NCBI GenBank assembly: GCA_051251855.1
Contig: JBPOGI010000007.1
Coordinates: 64,001-128,000 of the forward strand
From: Roseibacillus sp.
Lineage (GTDB): Bacteria > Verrucomicrobiota > Verrucomicrobiia > Verrucomicrobiales > Akkermansiaceae
Direction: 5' to 3'
DNA length: 64,000 nt
The translations under genes were made by a program, and so were the position numbers. Below are positions 34,187-42,370 of this stretch, in pieces. Numbering within the stretch: the stretch's first letter is position 1; each line of letters begins with the position of its first letter. The notes below the pieces were generated by a model. The model made no database searches, was not told the origin of the DNA, and worked only from the letters and a program-made list of their open reading frames with translations.

Positions 34187-34620
34187 GCACCTCAACCTCA
34201 GGGATCGAGATTGAGCTCGACCACTTTCACCACCAGCCCTTCCAAGAACTGAAAGGCAAAGTCCGTATCACGACACCAACCCCGCCCGAAGGTATGGAGC
34301 TCCGGGTCTTTTGGTTCACTCGAGGGCGTGGCGACGAAGAAGCCTCCATCATTCATCGTCTCAAACTCGAAACCGCCCAAGCGCTCACGAACTTCTCATG
34401 GAAACTTCCCGCTGCCCCCTACAGCTTCGCCGGCAAGCTCATCACCCTCGCTTGGGCTATCGAAGTTGTGGATGAAAACGAGCAATCCCTCGACCTTGTG
34501 CCCTTCCTCCTCTCCCCGAGTGGCGAAGAGGTTCAACTGGAAGCCATTCCTGACAACTCGCGCGCAGGAAAGCTCAAAGAAAAACTCGAGAAGAAATTCG
34601 GGCCACCGAGGAGCCAGTGA
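34183..34620 (+). CDS. Small hypothetical protein, arrestin-N/SpoOM-like fold suspected
   Basis: ATGA overlap with upstream gene; LKGKVRI, ELRVFWFTRGRG, LPAAPYSFAGKLITLAWAIEV. Confidence 0.65.
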   Translation: MSTSTSGIEIELDHFHHQPFQELKGKVRITTPTPPEGMELRVFWFTRGRGDEEASIIHRLKLETAQALTNFSWKLPAAPYSFAGKLITLAWAIEVVDENEQSLDLVPFLLSPSGEEVQLEAIPDNSRAGKLKEKLEKKFGPPRSQ

Positions 34621-35261
34621 AAGCTCACCTCAACCCCTTCGCTCCCGACCGGGTGCAGCGGCTCCTTCCCTTTGACCCTGAACTCATCGAGACCACTTGG
34701 GAACAACTTGAAACTCGCTGGGAAAACCTTCATCGGCGAGCGGTCATTACCGGCCCTCACGGCAGCGGAAAGACCACCTTCCTCAACACCTTTGCCGAGC
34801 GCCTCGCTGACACCTATCACGTCGAAACCCTCTTCTTTCACCGTGACGAGCACCGCCTCTCTCCCCAGCAAAGGAAACAAATCACTCGGCTCAAAGCCCC
34901 CTCTCGCACCATTCTCCTCGTCGATGGTGAAGGCCACCTCACTTTGCGCGAACGCCATTGGTTGCGCCACCAAAGCCAAGAGATGGCAGGCTACCTTGTC
35001 GCGCGCCATCACCGCTGCACCCTCCCCACTCTGCTTTCTCTCAGCGTGACCCCAAAACTTGCCCATCAACTCCTCGAACAGATTCACCCGGCAGAAGCCA
35101 CTCGTCGCGCAAACGATCTCCCCCAACTTCTTCGAAAAAAGAGCGGGAACCTACGCGAACTCTGGCTTAGCTTTTATGACAACTATGCGAGCCAAGACTC
35201 TCCTCCCTCTTCTGTTCCTCCTAACCCTGACCTGCAGCGGAGCCAAGCTCGCTCCCGGTGA
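34617..35261 (+). CDS. Small P-loop ATPase (AAA+/Hda-like)
   Basis: Walker A GPHGSGKTT, Walker B ILLVDG, C-terminal GNLREL; GTGA overlap. Confidence 0.75.
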   Translation: MKAHLNPFAPDRVQRLLPFDPELIETTWEQLETRWENLHRRAVITGPHGSGKTTFLNTFAERLADTYHVETLFFHRDEHRLSPQQRKQITRLKAPSRTILLVDGEGHLTLRERHWLRHQSQEMAGYLVARHHRCTLPTLLSLSVTPKLAHQLLEQIHPAEATRRANDLPQLLRKKSGNLRELWLSFYDNYASQDSPPSSVPPNPDLQRSQARSR

Positions 35262-36480
35262 GCCCCTGCCCTCCCTCACTCTCCCCACCGCCAGAGAGCA
35301 CAAGCCTCTCAGCACCGACTCCTTTCTCGGAAAGAAGACCCTCGTTCACATCTTTGCTTCCTGGTGAGCAGGCTGCCGTAAGCACGTGCCCGGGTGGCAC
35401 AACCAAACGAAAGACCTCGTAACAGAAGGCAAATTGCAAGTATTCGGCATCGCACCCGAACAATACGGCGATCGTATGGCTCTCTTTCTTCAATGGAAGA
35501 ACCTCGAATTCCCCGTCCTGATGGATCCCTTAAATGTGCTCAATGTCTCTGCCGTCCCCATCACTCTTCTCGTCGATGAGTCCGGAGTGATTCGCTACCG
35601 CAATCCCAAGCCTAGAGATCTAAAAGTCTTTTTAGACAAAGAATACCCCGAAACCGCAAGAGTCATCACTCCCGCTTCTCCTCTCGGACAAGAGCAGGCG
35701 CTGCGGGCGCTTCAAAATCGAGACACAGCCGAAATCGAGAGAGCTGCTACCATGTTGGCCTTACTCTCGACTTCGAATAAAAATCCTGAATTCACTTTTC
35801 AATCCGGCGTTCTTGCTCGCTGGCTCTTTGACAACGGAGGCGATCCCGAGAATTTTCAAACTGCGGTCCACCTCTGGAGCGACGCCCTTGCTCATCGCCC
35901 CGGTCAATACATCTGGCGCCGAAGAATCCAGCAATACGGTCCTCGCCTTGATAAGCCCTACCCATTCTACAACTGGGTCATCGAAGCTCGCAAAGACCTG
36001 CAAGCCGCTGGAAAAACGCCTCACCCGCTCCAAGTCGAACCATCAGGCTCGGAAGTGGCAGCCCCGCGCAAGAAAGGCGAACAAGGAAAAGAGTCCCCCA
36101 ACTTCCCCGACCCTAACAACAAGCTCCCCCACGAAAACGCCCTCCTCGAAATCACAACCACTACCATCCCGCATACCGACGCCCCCGAGAAGGGACGCCT
36201 CCACCTCCTGCTCACTCCTACCGAGAACGGGCATTGGTCCAGCGATGCTCAAAAGGTCGAGCTCTGGTTTCGTCCCGAAGAAGGCTCCCCCATCTTTCTC
36301 ACCAGCGAGGCCACTTCCCTCCCGGCTAATCTCGAGACCAGCAGCCTCCCCCGAGTCCTCGAAGGAGATTTCTCTCTTCCACAAAACTCCGCTGGGAAGC
36401 TGGTTCTCTTCTACTCCCTTTGCGAAACCGAGAATGCTGTTTGCCGCTTTCTCAAAACGGAATGGAAATTTCATCAGTAA
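35185..36480 (+). CDS. Probable selenoprotein: exported TlpA/AhpC-TSA-like thioredoxin-fold protein with UxxC site and long C-terminal extension
   Basis: ORFs 35059-35367 and 35386-36480 are in one frame, separated only by TGA 35365-35367, giving GKKTLVHIFASW-U-AGCRKHVP; cis-Pro loop SAVPITLLVDESGVIRY follows; SECIS-like hairpin downstream. Confidence 0.85.
35368..35400 (+). promoter_or_regulatory. Candidate bacterial SECIS element
   Basis: GTGCC-CGGGT-GGCAC hairpin (35386-35400); G-containing loop begins 24 nt after the UGA. Confidence 0.6.
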
Positions 36481-36555
36481 GCCCCTCCCGTTTATTGCAG
36501 GAACAAGAATGTCCCTGCTCCTTTGACTCAGCTGCCTTTTTCGTTAGTCTCCGGC

Positions 36556-36984
36556 ATGGCTAACGAACTCGTCAAAATACCCCGTCAGCGCGAGGTATCT
36601 CCTTGCCCGTGCAACAAGGAGAAGAGCTACGACCAATGCTGCATGCCCTTTCACTATGGCCGCGCCATGCCCGAGACGGCGGAACAACTGATGCGGTCAC
36701 GCTACACCGCCTTTTTCTTCCGACTCGTCGACTACCTCGTTTCCACCACTCACCCCGACAAGCGCGAGAAAGACCTCGCTCGCGAACTCGACAAAACCAT
36801 CTGGAATCCCAGTTGGCGAAAGCTCCAAGTCATTTCCCAATCGAAAGGCGGCAAAGAGGATAAAACCGGCAAAGTCGAATTCATTGCCACCTTTTCACTC
36901 GATGGCGAAAAACGCGAACTCCACGAAAAATCCCGCTTCCGCCGCTACAAAGGCAAGTGGATGTATGTAGATGGGAAAGGATAA
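36556..36984 (+). CDS. ychJ: YchJ family protein (SEC-C motif + NTF2-like)
   Basis: CPC...Y..CC, TAEQLMRSRYTAF, GKVEFIA, LHEKSRF...WMYVDG. Confidence 0.9.
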   Translation: MANELVKIPRQREVSPCPCNKEKSYDQCCMPFHYGRAMPETAEQLMRSRYTAFFFRLVDYLVSTTHPDKREKDLARELDKTIWNPSWRKLQVISQSKGGKEDKTGKVEFIATFSLDGEKRELHEKSRFRRYKGKWMYVDGKG

Positions 36985-36989
36985 CGAAA

Positions 36990-37595
36990 ATGAGCCTACA
37001 AGAAGAGTGGAACACACTATGCACCTCGTTGAATCTCGACGGCCTGCACTCTTGGACGAAGATCGAAGAATCCTACAGCAAGAACCAACTGGCTTATCAT
37101 AACCTCACTCATATCGCTGACTGTTTGAGCAAATTTCGAGCCTCACAACATCTTGCCCAAGACCCCGCTGCAATCGAACTCGCCATTTGGTTTCACGATA
37201 TCGTTTACGATCCCAAGGCCTCGGACAACGAGGAACAAAGTGCCCGCAGAGCTGAAAGCTTCCTATTGGATTCTCCTCTAACCACAAGGGTTACCGAACT
37301 CATTCTCGATACCAGCCACCGTCAGGAAGCAGAGACCTCCGACGGCAAGCTCATTTGTGATATCGACCTGAGTATTTTGGGGAGTGACCCAAAGAGCTAC
37401 CGTTCTTATGCAGATGCCATTCGAGAAGAATACTCTTGGGTAAATTCGACCGATTACATGCTCGGGCGCAGCCAAGTCTTAGAGAACTTTCTCAATCGAA
37501 AGAGAATCTTCGCTCTTCCCTACTTTGAAGAAAAATACGAACAGCAAGCACGATTGAACTTATCAGAAGAGTTAGAATCACTGACTAGTTGCTAG
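36990..37595 (+). CDS. Predicted HD-superfamily metal-dependent phosphohydrolase (COG4339-like)
   Basis: YHNLTHI, AIWFHDIVYDP, NEEQSA, DIDLSILG, IREEY. Confidence 0.85.
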   Translation: MSLQEEWNTLCTSLNLDGLHSWTKIEESYSKNQLAYHNLTHIADCLSKFRASQHLAQDPAAIELAIWFHDIVYDPKASDNEEQSARRAESFLLDSPLTTRVTELILDTSHRQEAETSDGKLICDIDLSILGSDPKSYRSYADAIREEYSWVNSTDYMLGRSQVLENFLNRKRIFALPYFEEKYEQQARLNLSEELESLTSC

Positions 37596-40500
37596 AAACC
37601 TCAACCCCCAGCTCCTGAAAGGCGGTGTTTTCCTTGGGATTTTTGGCTGGAGAGACCTGCCAGACGATCCACCGGAACTCCCCAAGAGATTCTCCCTTCG
37701 GAGCTCGCAATGAAAGTGCACTAAACGCTTCCAAGGATTCTTTTCCGCTCTTCAAAACTCCCAAAGGCACGAACCGTTCCGCGTTGGTGAGGTCCCAGCC
37801 TGGGTCTTTCTCATCTGCACTCCCATAGAGACGAACTGACTGATGTCCACGTCGTCCCCCTTCGTTGTGAGACCAACTCGTCATCGCCGAAATACTCTTC
37901 TTCTTCCCGAGGTCTAGTTTGTAGGCACCATCTGTGATCCCATTCCCAAAGACTGGTCCGTATCCTTCCTCCAAGCGACCATCGGTAAGAACCTTCGGCG
38001 AGTCATTGCTTGTCTTCTGATTCGTCATCACTGTTCCCTTCGACTTCTTAGGGACCAACTGATTGAACTCAGAAGCATTCGCGGCGGTCTCAAAAAACAC
38101 GCCCTCACCTAGATTCTTCGTCGTCGCCTTCTTTTCTTCGACGGTCTTCAACTCTTCCACAATGAGCGAACCTTGCATCACCCGCCAGTGACCGGGGAAG
38201 GTGCAGATGTAGGGATAGACTCCCGGTTCAGTGGGAGCTTCGAAAACCAGCTCCTGCTCCTGCTTGGTGGAAAGAAGCTTCGACGCTTGCAGGATTTTTG
38301 CACTCTCAGGGAGATACTCTTTTTCAGCGCCATCCGCTTGGCCAGCTAGCTTGTCCGCCAACGCCCCCATCTCCTCAACGCTTCCGGGAGCAATAAGCAC
38401 CCAGTTGTGCGGCATGATATCGGGGTTTTCAAAAATGAGACGCACCTTACTCCCCGGGGTTACTCGAACTTCCTTGGGAGCAAACTGAAGCCCTGCCGCC
38501 GCCTGCACCCGAACCACGTTCCCTCGCTCAGCCACCATCTCTTCGTATTCCTCAGCAAAGCCCTCCAGCTCATCAAAGCTCTTTGAATACTGAACTCCAG
38601 CGACCTCCTGCCCAACCGGATCATAGAGATAGGCCGGTGGCATGGTCTTGGTTTTGCGACGTCCACTCTTGAGTAAAATCTCAATCGTATTCAGCCCCTT
38701 CTCCAGCTCGACATTGACTTGCTGGTCACCGCTCCAAAGCGAGTCCTGACTAAAAACGAGGCGATCGTTCAGACGAATATCAATCGACATGTGCTTAATC
38801 GCAATGATGGCTGTTGTGGGTTCATCAGCTTGAACAAAAGTTCGGAAGAGCCCCACCCCCGGCAGAGGCTTGCCTTCGGTCGCTAGCTCTGTGGGAACCG
38901 CATCCCCCTTCTCTCCCAGAAACAACCAATGCGTCATCCGTGAGTTCTTATCAACTTCGAGAACCGGAACGCTGCGCCCCTTGAGAGGTTCAATACCAAG
39001 GTCAAGATAACTGAGAGAACTTTCCACATCCTTTGTGAGCGGTTTCAGGTTGGCGAGAACCGTCTCCACCTCCGGATAATTGGGCCGCAAGTGAGCGACG
39101 GCATCAATGACTTCAATTTGAACTCTGGGATTCGTCTCGGTTTCAACAAAAGACAAAAGGCCCACCAAGTCGGGCAATTCATCTGCCTGAATTCGAATCG
39201 CTTGCACGGCCGCTCCTCGGTAAAGGGCCAACTTGGATCGAAGCAAAACCTTCAGGAGGTCTGGCTGAACTACCCCAAGGCCTTCCCCCACAAAAATGGT
39301 CTCGAGCACAGCCTGCTCATAGTTCTCATCCTCTTTATCAAAGGCCGCCAACCAATCATTAACCGCGCCCATCCCTTGCGAACCCTGCTTTCGCAACTCA
39401 ATTCGGGCATGCTTCCTCACTAGGTCCTGAGGGTGCACGAGAAGAGAACAAAGCGCTTTGAGCGAAGCTCCTTCAATCTGCGGCCAATCCTTGGCGAGTG
39501 ACCCTTTCGAATACACCACTCTCCAAATACGACCAAAATCATGGTCCCAATGAGGACTCCGCATTGGGTGCTGGGCGTGCCCAATAATGGGGCTACAAAA
39601 ATCGGAAATGTAGAGCGCCCCATCCATCCCAAACTCCAAGTCCGCTGGACGAAACGCCGCGTTGGGAGAAGAAACAATAGTCAAAGGATCCTTTTTCCGA
39701 TTGAACCCGTTTTTAGATTCGAAAGCAGTCAAGGTCACGGCATAGCGGCCAAGAAGAGCCGCCGAGGCCATCCCTTGCTGATAGCGCTCGGGGAAGTTCG
39801 GACTTGAGACAATGGTCAGTCCCGAGCCCTTTCCGTAGGTTGCAATGTTCGCGTAGCCAAAGGGATGATAACCACCCAGAGGAGTCCAAATCAGCGCGGT
39901 GCCATCATAGGCATGGCCATCGCCATAGTTCTGAAAGATTCCACCCCAACGATTAAAGGTCACCTTCCATGGATTGGGCGTGGTGTGCTGCCACTCGGTG
40001 ACAATTCCGCCATCCTTCATATCGAGCCGATAAGTGGTGGCATCGATTCCGCGATGAACCCCCATGGGCGTTTCTAACTGTGAACGATGAAAGACCCCGT
40101 CGCAGAAGATGACATCGCCAAAAGGGTCCGTCGTGATCATTCCGCCATGGTGAGAATCCGTCACGTCAATCCCGCGCAGCAATTCCACCTGAGTATCGGC
40201 TCGATCATCGCCGTCGGTATCCTTCATCAACCAAAGACGAGGCTGCTCCGAAACGATGACCCCGTCGCGATGAAAAGCCACCCCATCCAAAGCATCGAGA
40301 CCATCCATAAAGGTCGTGATCTTATCCGCTCGCCCATCTTTATCGGTATCTTCTAGAATTACGATTCGATCGGGTGGCGTGAGACCCGGCACAGTGTGAG
40401 GAAAAGAAGGCATCGTCACCACCCACAGGCGGCCACGCGCATCAAAAGAAATCTGAACCGGATTGCGCAGCTCAGGGAACTGCTCTTCCGAAGCAAAAAG

Positions 40501-41538
40501 GTTCACTTCAAAATCATCCGCGACAGTGAACTCCGCCATCGCCTCACTGGGTGGCTTAATGATTCCAGTGCGTGCGCCATCGTCTTTGCCCTTTCTCGGG
40601 GGGAGCGGAGGCAAGGAAGGCTTCTCGATATCAGCAAAATTCAGCGTCGAATCCTTGGCCATGCGATGCACCACTTCTTCGGTGAGACGAATCATCTCAT
40701 GATAGCGAGGCATCTCTTCATTATACTCCTTCGAGCGAGCACGGACTCCGAAGTAAACCACCGCATTCTTCGGTCTCACCACTTCAGCGACACGCTTGTG
40801 CTTCGCGGCCACGGCGAGTTTCAACTCCTCAATACGACTCTTATCCATCTCTTGAGTAGCGGAACCAACCAGCGCCTCGGCAATGACCCGAGCCACGTGA
40901 TGATTCCCCAAGTCACTCAAGTGAATGCCATTGTTCGTCAAGGGAGCTTCCAACTCTTGATATCTCTTTTGAGTCGCCGAAAAGAGATCCACGAACTCGG
41001 CCCCTCGTTCCTTGGCCAATTGCGCGATCGCTTGGCTATACATTCCAACCTCAGCTTGACGTTCAGCCGAAGCCCCCTCAATCGCAATCGGCGAAAGCAA
41101 AACAAACCGCGCATTGGGATGAAGATGAGAAAGCTGGTCGAGATGCACTCCATATTGCGCTCGAAAATCCTCCAAACCCTCCTCGCCCCCAAAAGACTCA
41201 TTCAAACCGTAGCCCAACACGATGGTGTCGGAAGGCCACTCTTGTAGCAAATTCTTCATGTGCTTGGCATAGCCCTCAAGACGAAGTCGATGGCCCACCT
41301 CATCACCGGTCCACGCCAAGCTACGGACCTTCAACCCAGCCTCGGGAGCAGCGAGCTGTAAACGCGCTTCCAATTCTCCATGCTCCAAGAGCCGCTCGAT
41401 CATGGAGTTGCCATAGAAGAGAATACTGTTCTTCCCCGAGGAATCAGCGGCCTTTGCAAGGACCGAGGTTAGGAGAAAAAGACAAGTCGCCAGGCAATAC
41501 GATCGAGCCGTGGAGGTGAGTCGAGAAAGGTTGTCCAT
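37585..41538 (-). CDS. PVC-type membrane-bound dehydrogenase-like protein: SGNH + beta-propeller + HEAT + cupredoxin + C-terminal beta-sandwich
   Basis: FYGNS/GLNES/NGIHL (SGNH-like); FEVNLFASE..FPEL.NP..ISFDARGRLWV, LEDTDKDGRAD, FRPAD; PHNWV and YICTFPGHWRVM (type-1 Cu); start uncertain. Confidence 0.85.
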   Translation of the reverse strand: MDNLSRLTSTARSYCLATCLFLLTSVLAKAADSSGKNSILFYGNSMIERLLEHGELEARLQLAAPEAGLKVRSLAWTGDEVGHRLRLEGYAKHMKNLLQEWPSDTIVLGYGLNESFGGEEGLEDFRAQYGVHLDQLSHLHPNARFVLLSPIAIEGASAERQAEVGMYSQAIAQLAKERGAEFVDLFSATQKRYQELEAPLTNNGIHLSDLGNHHVARVIAEALVGSATQEMDKSRIEELKLAVAAKHKRVAEVVRPKNAVVYFGVRARSKEYNEEMPRYHEMIRLTEEVVHRMAKDSTLNFADIEKPSLPPLPPRKGKDDGARTGIIKPPSEAMAEFTVADDFEVNLFASEEQFPELRNPVQISFDARGRLWVVTMPSFPHTVPGLTPPDRIVILEDTDKDGRADKITTFMDGLDALDGVAFHRDGVIVSEQPRLWLMKDTDGDDRADTQVELLRGIDVTDSHHGGMITTDPFGDVIFCDGVFHRSQLETPMGVHRGIDATTYRLDMKDGGIVTEWQHTTPNPWKVTFNRWGGIFQNYGDGHAYDGTALIWTPLGGYHPFGYANIATYGKGSGLTIVSSPNFPERYQQGMASAALLGRYAVTLTAFESKNGFNRKKDPLTIVSSPNAAFRPADLEFGMDGALYISDFCSPIIGHAQHPMRSPHWDHDFGRIWRVVYSKGSLAKDWPQIEGASLKALCSLLVHPQDLVRKHARIELRKQGSQGMGAVNDWLAAFDKEDENYEQAVLETIFVGEGLGVVQPDLLKVLLRSKLALYRGAAVQAIRIQADELPDLVGLLSFVETETNPRVQIEVIDAVAHLRPNYPEVETVLANLKPLTKDVESSLSYLDLGIEPLKGRSVPVLEVDKNSRMTHWLFLGEKGDAVPTELATEGKPLPGVGLFRTFVQADEPTTAIIAIKHMSIDIRLNDRLVFSQDSLWSGDQQVNVELEKGLNTIEILLKSGRRKTKTMPPAYLYDPVGQEVAGVQYSKSFDELEGFAEEYEEMVAERGNVVRVQAAAGLQFAPKEVRVTPGSKVRLIFENPDIMPHNWVLIAPGSVEEMGALADKLAGQADGAEKEYLPESAKILQASKLLSTKQEQELVFEAPTEPGVYPYICTFPGHWRVMQGSLIVEELKTVEEKKATTKNLGEGVFFETAANASEFNQLVPKKSKGTVMTNQKTSNDSPKVLTDGRLEEGYGPVFGNGITDGAYKLDLGKKKSISAMTSWSHNEGGRRGHQSVRLYGSADEKDPGWDLTNAERFVPLGVLKSGKESLEAFSALSLRAPKGESLGEFRWIVWQVSPAKNPKENTAFQELGVEVSSN

Positions 41539-41611
41539 GTTGAGTAGAGAGCTACGAAGAAACTCAGGCGAGTTTTCCACTTTATCCTCCATCAACAAGA
41601 AAAAGGAACCT

Positions 41612-42370
41612 CTACTGACCCAGCTTGGCCACATAGACCGTGCTTCGGCTCTCGCAATCTTGAATAGGATTGTCAAAGGTCACAATGTGCGCTTCCGCAG
41701 TAGCAAAAACTTCCCGCAAGGCCGTTAGAAATGCCTCATCTGGGGCATCATCAGACCACAGCCCAAAGACGCCTCCCGCCTTCAACTTGTTGGCCATCTT
41801 TCTCAGACCCTCTGGCTCATAAAACGTGGCATGGCGTTCATGCAAAAGCTTGGTAGGAGAATGGTCAATATCGAGGAGCACAGCATCAAACCGCTTTTCG
41901 GCCTCACCCGGTGCAAAGTGCTCGGCACCCTCATCAGCTAGCGCGAGTTCAAAGAAATCTCCATGCACAAAATGGCAACGCTCGTCATCGCTCAGCTCTT
42001 TTCCGAGAGGAACCAAACCACGCTGATGCCAATCAATCACCGGCGCGAGGTAGTCAACCACGTAACAAGATTTCACCGCAGAATACGCAAGAGCAGCCTG
42101 CGCGGTAAAACCCAGTCCCAAGCCACCGACCACCACATCTAGAGAAGGCTCACCTTCTAAAGTATCCGAAACCGCAGCCAAACCTAAGTCCGACAACGCC
42201 TCCTCCACCACTGTGAAGAGACTCGACATTAAAAAAGCATCGCCCAGAACAACCTCGTGCACCTCAAGGTGGTCGAGCGACGGAACGGTGCGTCGACGAA
42301 GGCTCAACAAACCCAACGGAGTCTGCTGGCTATCGAGGTGCTCGAAGACCGGTGGGCGAAACTCAGGCAA
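41612..42370 (-). CDS. Spermidine synthase-like SAM-dependent methyltransferase
   Basis: FLMSS, VVGGLGLGFTA, FDAVLLDIDHSP, GGVFGLWS. Confidence 0.85.
   Translation of the reverse strand: MPEFRPPVFEHLDSQQTPLGLLSLRRRTVPSLDHLEVHEVVLGDAFLMSSLFTVVEEALSDLGLAAVSDTLEGEPSLDVVVGGLGLGFTAQAALAYSAVKSCYVVDYLAPVIDWHQRGLVPLGKELSDDERCHFVHGDFFELALADEGAEHFAPGEAEKRFDAVLLDIDHSPTKLLHERHATFYEPEGLRKMANKLKAGGVFGLWSDDAPDEAFLTALREVFATAEAHIVTFDNPIQDCESRSTVYVAKLGQ

Follow-up and report, generated by a model that had tools for sequence, protein, structure and literature searches.

Exported thioredoxin-fold proteins of the ResA, CcmG (DsbE) and TlpA type carry a C-x-x-C active site of the W-x-x-x-C type at the start of helix 1. 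CcmG and the N-terminal domain of DsbD (nDsbD) constitute a redox pair, one partner having a thioredoxin fold and the other an immunoglobulin (Ig) fold, between which electrons are transferred; DsbC and DsbG also receive electrons from this DsbD domain. Thioredoxin-fold selenoproteins with selenocysteine (Sec, U) in place of the first cysteine (UxxC) have been known as a class since 2005, and those termed 'Prx-like thiol:disulfide oxidoreductase' were reportedly predicted by Zhang et al. 2005; in bacterial selenoprotein genes the selenocysteine insertion sequence (SECIS) hairpin lies shortly 3' of the UGA and its apical loop contains a G. A 'Prx-like' UxxC selenoprotein family is described in the Sargasso Sea paper (PMC1088965), and a table in a 2026 review lists a 'Prx-like thiol:disulfide oxidoreductase' (PF00578, UxxC) together with a 'UGC-containing TlpA' family (PMC13188914). 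Here we describe a locus at positions 35185-36480 (+ strand) of a 64,000-nucleotide stretch of Roseibacillus sp. contig JBPOGI010000007.1 (the window), which is very probably one gene for an exported selenoprotein of 431 residues, its UGA predicted from the sequence to be decoded as Sec at the active site. The protein shares with ResA, CcmG and TlpA the fold, topology, export and placement of the active site, and differs from them in having Sec as the predicted first residue of the motif (U-x-x-C in 80/80 loci) and in a fused extension of about 280 residues, part tetratricopeptide repeat-like (TPR-like) and part DsbD_N-like. It is a distinct and widely spread fused variant of the UxxC class and, the class itself being long known, the result is solid and not startling.

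The frame has 432 codons, 431 of them followed by a TAA stop, with a single internal TGA at 35365-35367, where the sequence reads TTT GCT TCC TGG TGA GCA GGC TGC CGT AAG CAC GTG CCC GGG TGG CAC. The list of open reading frames (ORFs) splits the gene here into two entries in the same frame, 35059..35367, ending in VHIFASW, and 35386..36480 (364 aa, GTG start, MPGWH). If the TGA is read as U, translation from the ATG at 35185 yields 431 residues, with U61 the sole non-standard step and W-U-A-G-C-R occupying residues 60-65; the N-terminus of this read-through protein is MRAKTLLPLLFLLTLTCSGAKLAPGEPLPSLTLP, and further downstream it contains VPITLLVDESGVIRY. The initial annotation had proposed that two same-frame ORFs parted by a single TGA belong to one exported selenoprotein of 431 residues, with the TGA at the first Cys position of a TlpA/AhpC-TSA site, a signal peptide upstream and the fold continuing downstream. 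All of this is borne out: the ORF arrangement by the sequence and the list, the signal peptide and the continuing fold by the two segments above, the position in the active site by Pfam and Foldseek, and the selenoprotein as a whole by the conserved TGA, the hairpin and the Sec machinery presented below.

Pfam recognizes AhpC-TSA (PF00578, 5.6e-10) and Redoxin (PF08534, 4.7e-9) at residues 24-144, both above their gathering scores (39.7 bits vs 26 and 36.6 vs 26.6), and nothing elsewhere in the protein. The read-through protein was modelled with AlphaFold2 from a 41-row alignment, giving a mean predicted local distance difference test score (pLDDT) of 91.6 and a predicted template-modelling score (pTM) of 0.89, with the signal peptide (pLDDT 54-58) as the sole part of low confidence. 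Its best PDB matches in Foldseek are ResA, DsbE, CcmG, StoA and SdbA (template-modelling score, target, 0.64-0.77; probability 1.00 for ResA, DsbE and CcmG), and the TGA position falls between strand 1 and the active-site helix of one thioredoxin fold. These data bear on the reading under which the TGA is a true stop and the locus gives two products, a 60-residue exported peptide and a 364-residue TPR protein from the GTG at 35386, as publicly annotated. Gene callers yield exactly such a split, and a GTG does lie 18 nt past the TGA; the stop would however interrupt a single fold at that point, the read-through model is one body with the ResA/CcmG match spanning the break, and the 364-residue product would have no signal peptide and only half of its first domain. 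Moreover, the supposed start GTG is the Val codon of the hairpin stem, and all 80 loci considered next, at 35-60% identity, preserve the reading frame, the TGA and its W-x-A-G-C surroundings. A true stop at this codon is thus very unlikely.

Among the genomes of 40 relatives, seven matches cover the site (38-60% identity), each with exactly one TGA, at FASW*AGCR; an eighth copy is truncated where its contig ends. Scanning 185,579 species, each represented by a single genome, gave 541 pattern matches, 478 of which encode a relative, and the best 80 of these were used for comparison. TGA is present at the aligned codon in 80/80, in the context W*AGCR or, in a few, W*VGCR or W*QGCR, and none of the 80 has TGG, TGC or TGT there. 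The question raised in the initial annotation of whether homologs have TGA or Cys at this site is answered by these 80 loci and by the 7/7 relatives' genomes that cover it: all have TGA, with no Cys or Trp. By their record titles the 80 loci belong to Verrucomicrobiota, Acidobacteriota (including Vicinamibacteria and 'Marinacidobacterales'), Planctomycetota (including Phycisphaerae) and Poribacteria. Cultured carriers named in these titles are Roseibacillus persicicus KCTC 12988 and Oceaniferula spumae NT6N. Of the 80 loci, 78 yielded a whole reading frame that opens with a signal-peptide-like segment, and the N-terminus is basic and then hydrophobic in all. The gene was found in 0/400 other genomes searched at E <= 1e-20, a sample dominated by other genera (28 genomes come from one genus, for example) that has little bearing on its range. 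One 'Marinacidobacterales' assembly has two copies, L081 and L086, the former ending early (392 aa), before the C-terminal Cys pair.

Could the TGA instead be a nonsense mutation, the mark of a pseudogene or an error of assembly? The only point in favour is that a stop codon is there at all, whereas the same codon occupies the same site in 80/80 loci from at least four phyla (by record titles), and the frame after it is open and conserved. As regards assembly error, which the initial annotation had named as a possibility, contigs from two sequencing runs are identical to the window (word depth 1916 in one), although these runs are a possible source of the window DNA and hence not independent of it; in two other studies, relatives' short contigs cover 35361-35404 and the letters of the TGA do not vary. 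We regard mutation or error as extremely unlikely. In two unrelated marine metagenomes (runs X5 and X7), short contigs from other organisms match the window only at 35345-35400, the segment with the TGA and hairpin, where depth is about 15, compared with 0-6 over the rest of the gene. With the highest nucleotide conservation in the family, this stretch could be used as a family probe.

The organism had been predicted in the initial annotation to use Sec, and a search for selA, selB, selC and selD in the host genome (4.96 Mb, 13 contigs, estimated 95.4% complete) found the full set. Both selA (376.5 bits) and selD (375.9 bits) score above their curated cut-offs, selB reaches 331.1 bits against a cut-off of 242, and tRNA-Sec scores 63.9 bits against a gathering score of 47 and is read by ARAGORN as tRNA-SeC with anticodon TCA. 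The selD gene is itself Sec-encoding, with one in-frame TGA (contig C7, 93151, + strand) in the N-terminal Gly-rich loop, SSCAG*ASK. A change of code or near-cognate read-through, by which UGA would be read as Trp, Gly or Cys and not as Sec, would likewise leave a frame open across the TGA. However, TGA terminates 35 of 78 orthologous genes (the others end in TAG, 23, or TAA, 20) and 9/42 stop-to-stop frames of at least 250 codons in the window, which indicates that TGA is still a stop here and that the internal TGA is not a general sense codon. The complete Sec machinery with its Sec-type SelD, the location of the codon at the catalytic Cys position with a conserved hairpin after it, and the lack of TGG, TGC or TGT in any ortholog also argue against such recoding, which we consider highly improbable. 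The gene is whole, its product folds as stated above, and the Sec machinery is present. Two other genes of this genome are candidates for selenoproteins. The first (contig C8, TGA at 303832, + strand) encodes an exported protein resembling peroxiredoxins, whose in-frame TGA lies in FFYPEADTPG*IKQC and gives a T-x-x-U pattern; an 8-pair hairpin begins 18 nt past the UGA. The other (contig C1, TGA at 1177446, - strand) is thioredoxin-like, likewise exported, and contains VLASWPSH*QACNAG (U-x-x-C); it has a hairpin 3' of the UGA, and its frame terminates at another TGA.

The palindrome GTGCC-CGGGT-GGCAC, pointed out in the initial annotation as a hairpin, is present at 35386-35400, within the coding sequence and beginning 18 nt past the TGA. 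Its stem (35386-35390 with 35396-35400) has five pairs in the window and encloses the loop CGGGU (35391-35395); a sixth, outer pair (35385/35401) is C-A in the window and C-G in most relatives. We aligned 81 sequences without gaps from the TGA to +60 and computed pairing statistics on the 80 distinct rows. On the 81 sequences RNAalifold returned, unprompted, a single 6-pair helix of columns 21-26 with 32-37 around a loop at 27-31. Standard pairs fill 96.5% of cells in the 80 rows, as opposed to 17.7-60.6% after displacement of the 3' partner by 1-3 columns, and compensatory changes are seen at pair 21-37 (CG 48, UA 8, UG 8) and pair 24-34 (GC 75, GU 4, AU 1). None of 500 shuffles equalled the observed covariation score, with the proviso that relatedness among the sequences can inflate such a control. 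The G (column 28) and U (column 31) of the loop are invariant. Codon choice follows the stem as well: its Val codon is GTG in 78/79 genes compared with 37.7% (965/2563) at the other Val codons of the same genes, the sole GTA pairs with TAC, and where the residue of the 3' arm changes from His to Tyr or Arg, pairing is kept through wobble. In the comparison with other UGA genes that the initial annotation had suggested, selD and the two further in-frame-TGA genes of the genome each have a hairpin beginning 15-21 nt after the UGA.

Several results count against the hairpin as a recoding signal. Covariation is modest, with double changes at 2/6 pairs, and since the stem encodes the conserved V-P-G-W-H, part of its conservation is protein-driven. 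An Rfam search of 35250-35550 at E <= 10 gave unrelated matches at chance level only. When the segment 35355-35430 of the window is folded alone, its stability is no better than that of shuffles (z = -0.15), and the support for the hairpin is therefore comparative and not thermodynamic. On that comparative evidence, the hairpin and TGA are under selection.

Public databases store this family systematically split, and nearly only as the pieces that follow the TGA. A search of 5.8 billion proteins gave 1533 matches at E <= 1e-10 among 8000 scored, and the best 120 homologs are 263-407 aa long with 57-93% query coverage, mostly 83-84%. Of these 120, 13 were aligned; their N-termini lie at the TGA or a little past it, mostly at (V/M)PGWH and in one at GCR. 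With HMMER, 445 of 1.84 billion cluster representatives match at E <= 1e-30; 144 of the best 150 begin at profile position 64 or later, and six are full length. The longest homolog, P0004 (407 aa, 93% coverage), was considered as a Cys form and rejected, as its active-site stretch is read in another frame. The records are variously named 'TlpA family protein disulfide reductase', 'thioredoxin family protein', 'TPR repeat protein' and 'hypothetical protein', and a search of the ESM Atlas retrieved nothing but the family's own clusters, labelled TPR and 'hypothetical protein'. No NCBIfam model covers the family. Its best match there is NF041054, 'ResA-like WAxxUGC motif-containing protein', a curated model of a ResA-like selenoprotein to which our protein is similar in kind; however, its score of 46.4 bits falls short of the cut-off of 300, only residues 27-144 match, and the motif is SW-U-AGC and not WAxxUGC, so that it is not a member.

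With its PF00578 match and UxxC motif, the protein also resembles the 'Prx-like thiol:disulfide oxidoreductase' class as tabulated in the review (PMC13188914). As described there and in the Sargasso Sea paper, that class differs in having some Cys homologs, and no TPR or DsbD_N extension is mentioned for it. The review gave no match to 'tetratricopeptide', 'Planctomycet' or 'Acidobacteri', and the sole 'DsbD' in it concerns another family, TsoB. A literature search combining selenoprotein, TlpA and DsbD found no paper on such an architecture; supplements, which may list members, lay outside this search.

Three features go beyond the initial annotation, namely the TPR-like middle, the DsbD_N-like C-terminal domain with its Cys pair, and the size of the family. 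The middle region is helical in the model (167-177, 181-198, 201-216, 222-237), and precomputed Pfam TPR matches on many homologs, as well as TPR families carried by the nearest ESM Atlas clusters, support its TPR-like character. It is followed by the motif QYIWRRRIQQYGPRLDKPYPFYNW, almost invariant across phyla, and the thioredoxin domain itself has an invariant Pro at V124-P125 in the alignments, which we take to be the cis-Pro of the thioredoxin fold. The idea of a lipoprotein, raised by Cys17 within the signal peptide, was rejected, as the T-L-T before this residue is unlike a lipobox and orthologs are without that Cys.

The C-terminal domain (residues 315-431) is a beta-sandwich (domain model pLDDT 92.2). 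VIA-align places DsbD-alpha (1jpe_A) third with Z 7.5 and Neisseria nDsbD (2k0r) at Z 6.9. Compared by hhalign with 31 DsbD_N domains from this genome and its order, the domain gives a probability of 79.8%, E 1.5e-5 and a score of 35.5 over 95 columns, and the match aligns both Cys and the HW-N-N stretch; control scores were 11.6 for the reversed alignment and 8.5-14.5 for ten column shuffles. Foldseek, by comparison, returned generic Ig-like matches only, with DsbD-alpha outside the top 50, and a PDB sequence search with the profile of the domain gave nothing below E 0.1. Because the hhalign and structure matches are accompanied by no Pfam match (see below), we view the domain as a putative remote DsbD-alpha relative and not as a member of PF11412. 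It is like the N-terminal domain of DsbD/ScsB (PF11412) in its Ig-like sandwich, in the two Cys on the last hairpin and in the aligned (H)W-N-(N/P) stretch. It differs in Cys spacing, C-x6-C as against C-x2 to C-x4 in the DsbD_N of this bacterial order, and the protein as a whole differs from DsbD in that it has no transmembrane domain and that its Ig domain stands at the C-terminus, joined to the presumed partner in one chain.

The most informative evidence in our analysis on how these parts relate comes from forms of the protein without Sec. We collected 28 full-length forms lacking the TGA, from the best 150 representatives and from a search seeded by one of them. Position 61 is Ser in 21, Asp in three and Cys in four, all four of the latter being CxxS; CxxC occurs in 0/28, nor was it found among the relatives examined. 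Both Cys of the C-terminal pair are lost in 25 of the 28, two keep one of them, and only P0270, a CxxS form, still has both; in the non-Sec forms the Arg-rich motif is decayed. Six neighbouring truncated forms, presumed to contain Sec, retain the Arg motif as well as both Cys. A tree inferred quickly by maximum likelihood from 48 rows requires three changes of the Sec label, at least two of them forced by well-supported branches, with a large non-Sec clade nested among Sec forms and P0270 at its base. Such repeated joint loss points to a single functional unit made up of Sec61, the C-terminal Cys pair and the Arg motif. The non-Sec clade (P0225, P0262-P0293 and others), with source names mostly of Planctomycetota/Phycisphaerae and SxxC, DxxS or CxxS for UxxC, may be a redox-dead or monothiol offshoot, and P0270, having retained the Cys pair, looks like an intermediate.

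A plausible mechanism is as follows. The UGA would be decoded by SelA, SelB, SelD and tRNA-Sec, guided by the small hairpin 18 nt downstream, and Sec61 and Cys64 would constitute the U-x-x-C active site of the ResA/CcmG/TlpA-type domain. The protein would act as a periplasmic disulfide (selenylsulfide) reductase in which the C413/C420 pair and the Sec/Cys site exchange electrons intramolecularly, much as nDsbD does with CcmG or cDsbD. Reducing power might come from a membrane DsbD homolog encoded elsewhere in the genome, where one frame of 718 codons includes both DsbD_N and DsbD_TM. For such a DsbD-fed internal relay with two centres, which we propose by analogy, the chances seem to us roughly balanced.

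Alternatively, the selenoprotein could work without a DsbD-fed relay. The Sec site alone would then act on a small oxidant or oxyanion bound by the Arg-rich motif, as a peroxidase, sulfoxide reductase or selenite/arsenate-type reductase, or else as an oxidase or isomerase, with the Cys pair of the Ig domain structural or the Ig domain a binding module. The Pfam families matched, AhpC-TSA and Redoxin, include peroxidases, and the RRR...K motif equals the active site in conservation and decays along with it; the relationship to DsbD_N is distant, unrelated Ig folds match the structure equally well, and the 79 loci reveal no conserved operon partner. On the other hand, the structural neighbours ResA, CcmG, DsbE, StoA and SdbA are reductases, the alignment places both Cys of the pair opposite the redox Cys of DsbD_N, and the pair was lost along with Sec at least 2-3 times, which a purely structural disulfide would not predict. 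We consider an enzyme of this kind unlikely, if well worth keeping in mind.

Returning to the two-centre relay, a number of observations weigh against it. PF11412 has no match on the protein at E <= 0.1, and a six-frame search of the genome with it at E <= 10 found two other loci and not this one. The Z of 7.5 for 1jpe_A is shared with many unrelated Ig-like folds (Z 7-8). Within 1.5 kb on either side of 79 loci the most widespread neighbour family occurs at 7/79, which gives no pointer to a partner or substrate. One locus, L067, retains the TGA and is without the first C-terminal Cys. Finally, the 'Sec' label of the truncated database forms was deduced from their start position and not from DNA.

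The features of the gene are collected in Table 1. A scan of 34900-36700 for promoters and terminators found no promoter-like site on the + strand and no terminator-like site. Upstream, an ORF at 34617-35261 (+, 214 aa) with a P-loop-like stretch, GPHGSGKT, overlaps the start codon of the selenoprotein gene by 77 nt in a different frame. Downstream lie an ORF at 36523-36984 (+, 153 aa) with a C-x-C...C-C stretch, CPCNKEKSYDQCC, and one on the opposite strand at 37585-41676 (-, 1363 aa); neither recurs beside the gene at other loci.

Table 1. Positions in the window of the selenoprotein gene and its predicted parts.
Feature	Position	Strand	Basis
Whole selenoprotein gene	35185..36480	+	Sequence, ORF list, read-through translation; AlphaFold2 model
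Signal peptide, about residues 1-20 (MRAK, then hydrophobic LLPLLFLLTLT)	35185..35244	+	Read from the sequence
Thioredoxin-fold domain, ResA/CcmG/TlpA type, residues 24-150	35254..35634	+	Pfam, Foldseek
TGA, predicted selenocysteine codon U61, first position of the W-U-A-G-C-R active site	35365..35367	+	TGA in 80/80 loci
TGC, Cys64, predicted resolving Cys of U-x-x-C	35374..35376	+	GC after a variable residue in 80/80 loci
SECIS-like hairpin	35385..35401	+	RNAalifold, pairing statistics, invariant loop G
Helical TPR-like middle, residues 167-237	35683..35895	+	Helices of the model; TPR matches of homologs
Almost invariant Arg-rich motif QYIWRRRIQQYGPRLDKPYPFYNW, residues 241-264	35905..35976	+	Invariant or nearly invariant columns in alignments A1 and A2
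C-terminal Ig-like beta-sandwich, putative remote DsbD_N (DsbD-alpha) relative, residues 315-431	36127..36477	+	Model, VIA-align, hhalign
Cys413, first Cys of C-x6-C	36421..36423	+	Nearly invariant; aligns with the first redox Cys of DsbD_N
Cys420, second Cys of C-x6-C	36442..36444	+	Invariant in alignments A2 and A3; aligned by hhalign

The varied names of the database records conceal one selenoprotein family, represented in at least 478 species-level genome stretches, and a curated model would mend many records. A predicted exported selenoenzyme is hereby added to marine Verrucomicrobiota, Acidobacteriota and Planctomycetota. It is a thioredoxin-fold enzyme whose Sec seems not to be replaceable by Cys, loss of Sec being accompanied by decay of the whole redox apparatus, and its domains suggest a fused version of the electron hand-off between DsbD-alpha and CcmG. 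A bolder proposal, which we put forward tentatively as a possibility, is that the family is obligately selenium-dependent: a Sec-thioredoxin centre and a DsbD-alpha-like Cys pair would be joined in one exported polypeptide as a self-contained periplasmic relay, with an invariant Arg-rich pocket that binds a specific substrate and with no CxxC counterpart among the relatives examined. Its carriers would number hundreds of species, most of them marine, from Verrucomicrobiota, Acidobacteriota, Planctomycetota and other groups. If this were true, envelope redox chemistry in these groups would depend on the supply of selenium.

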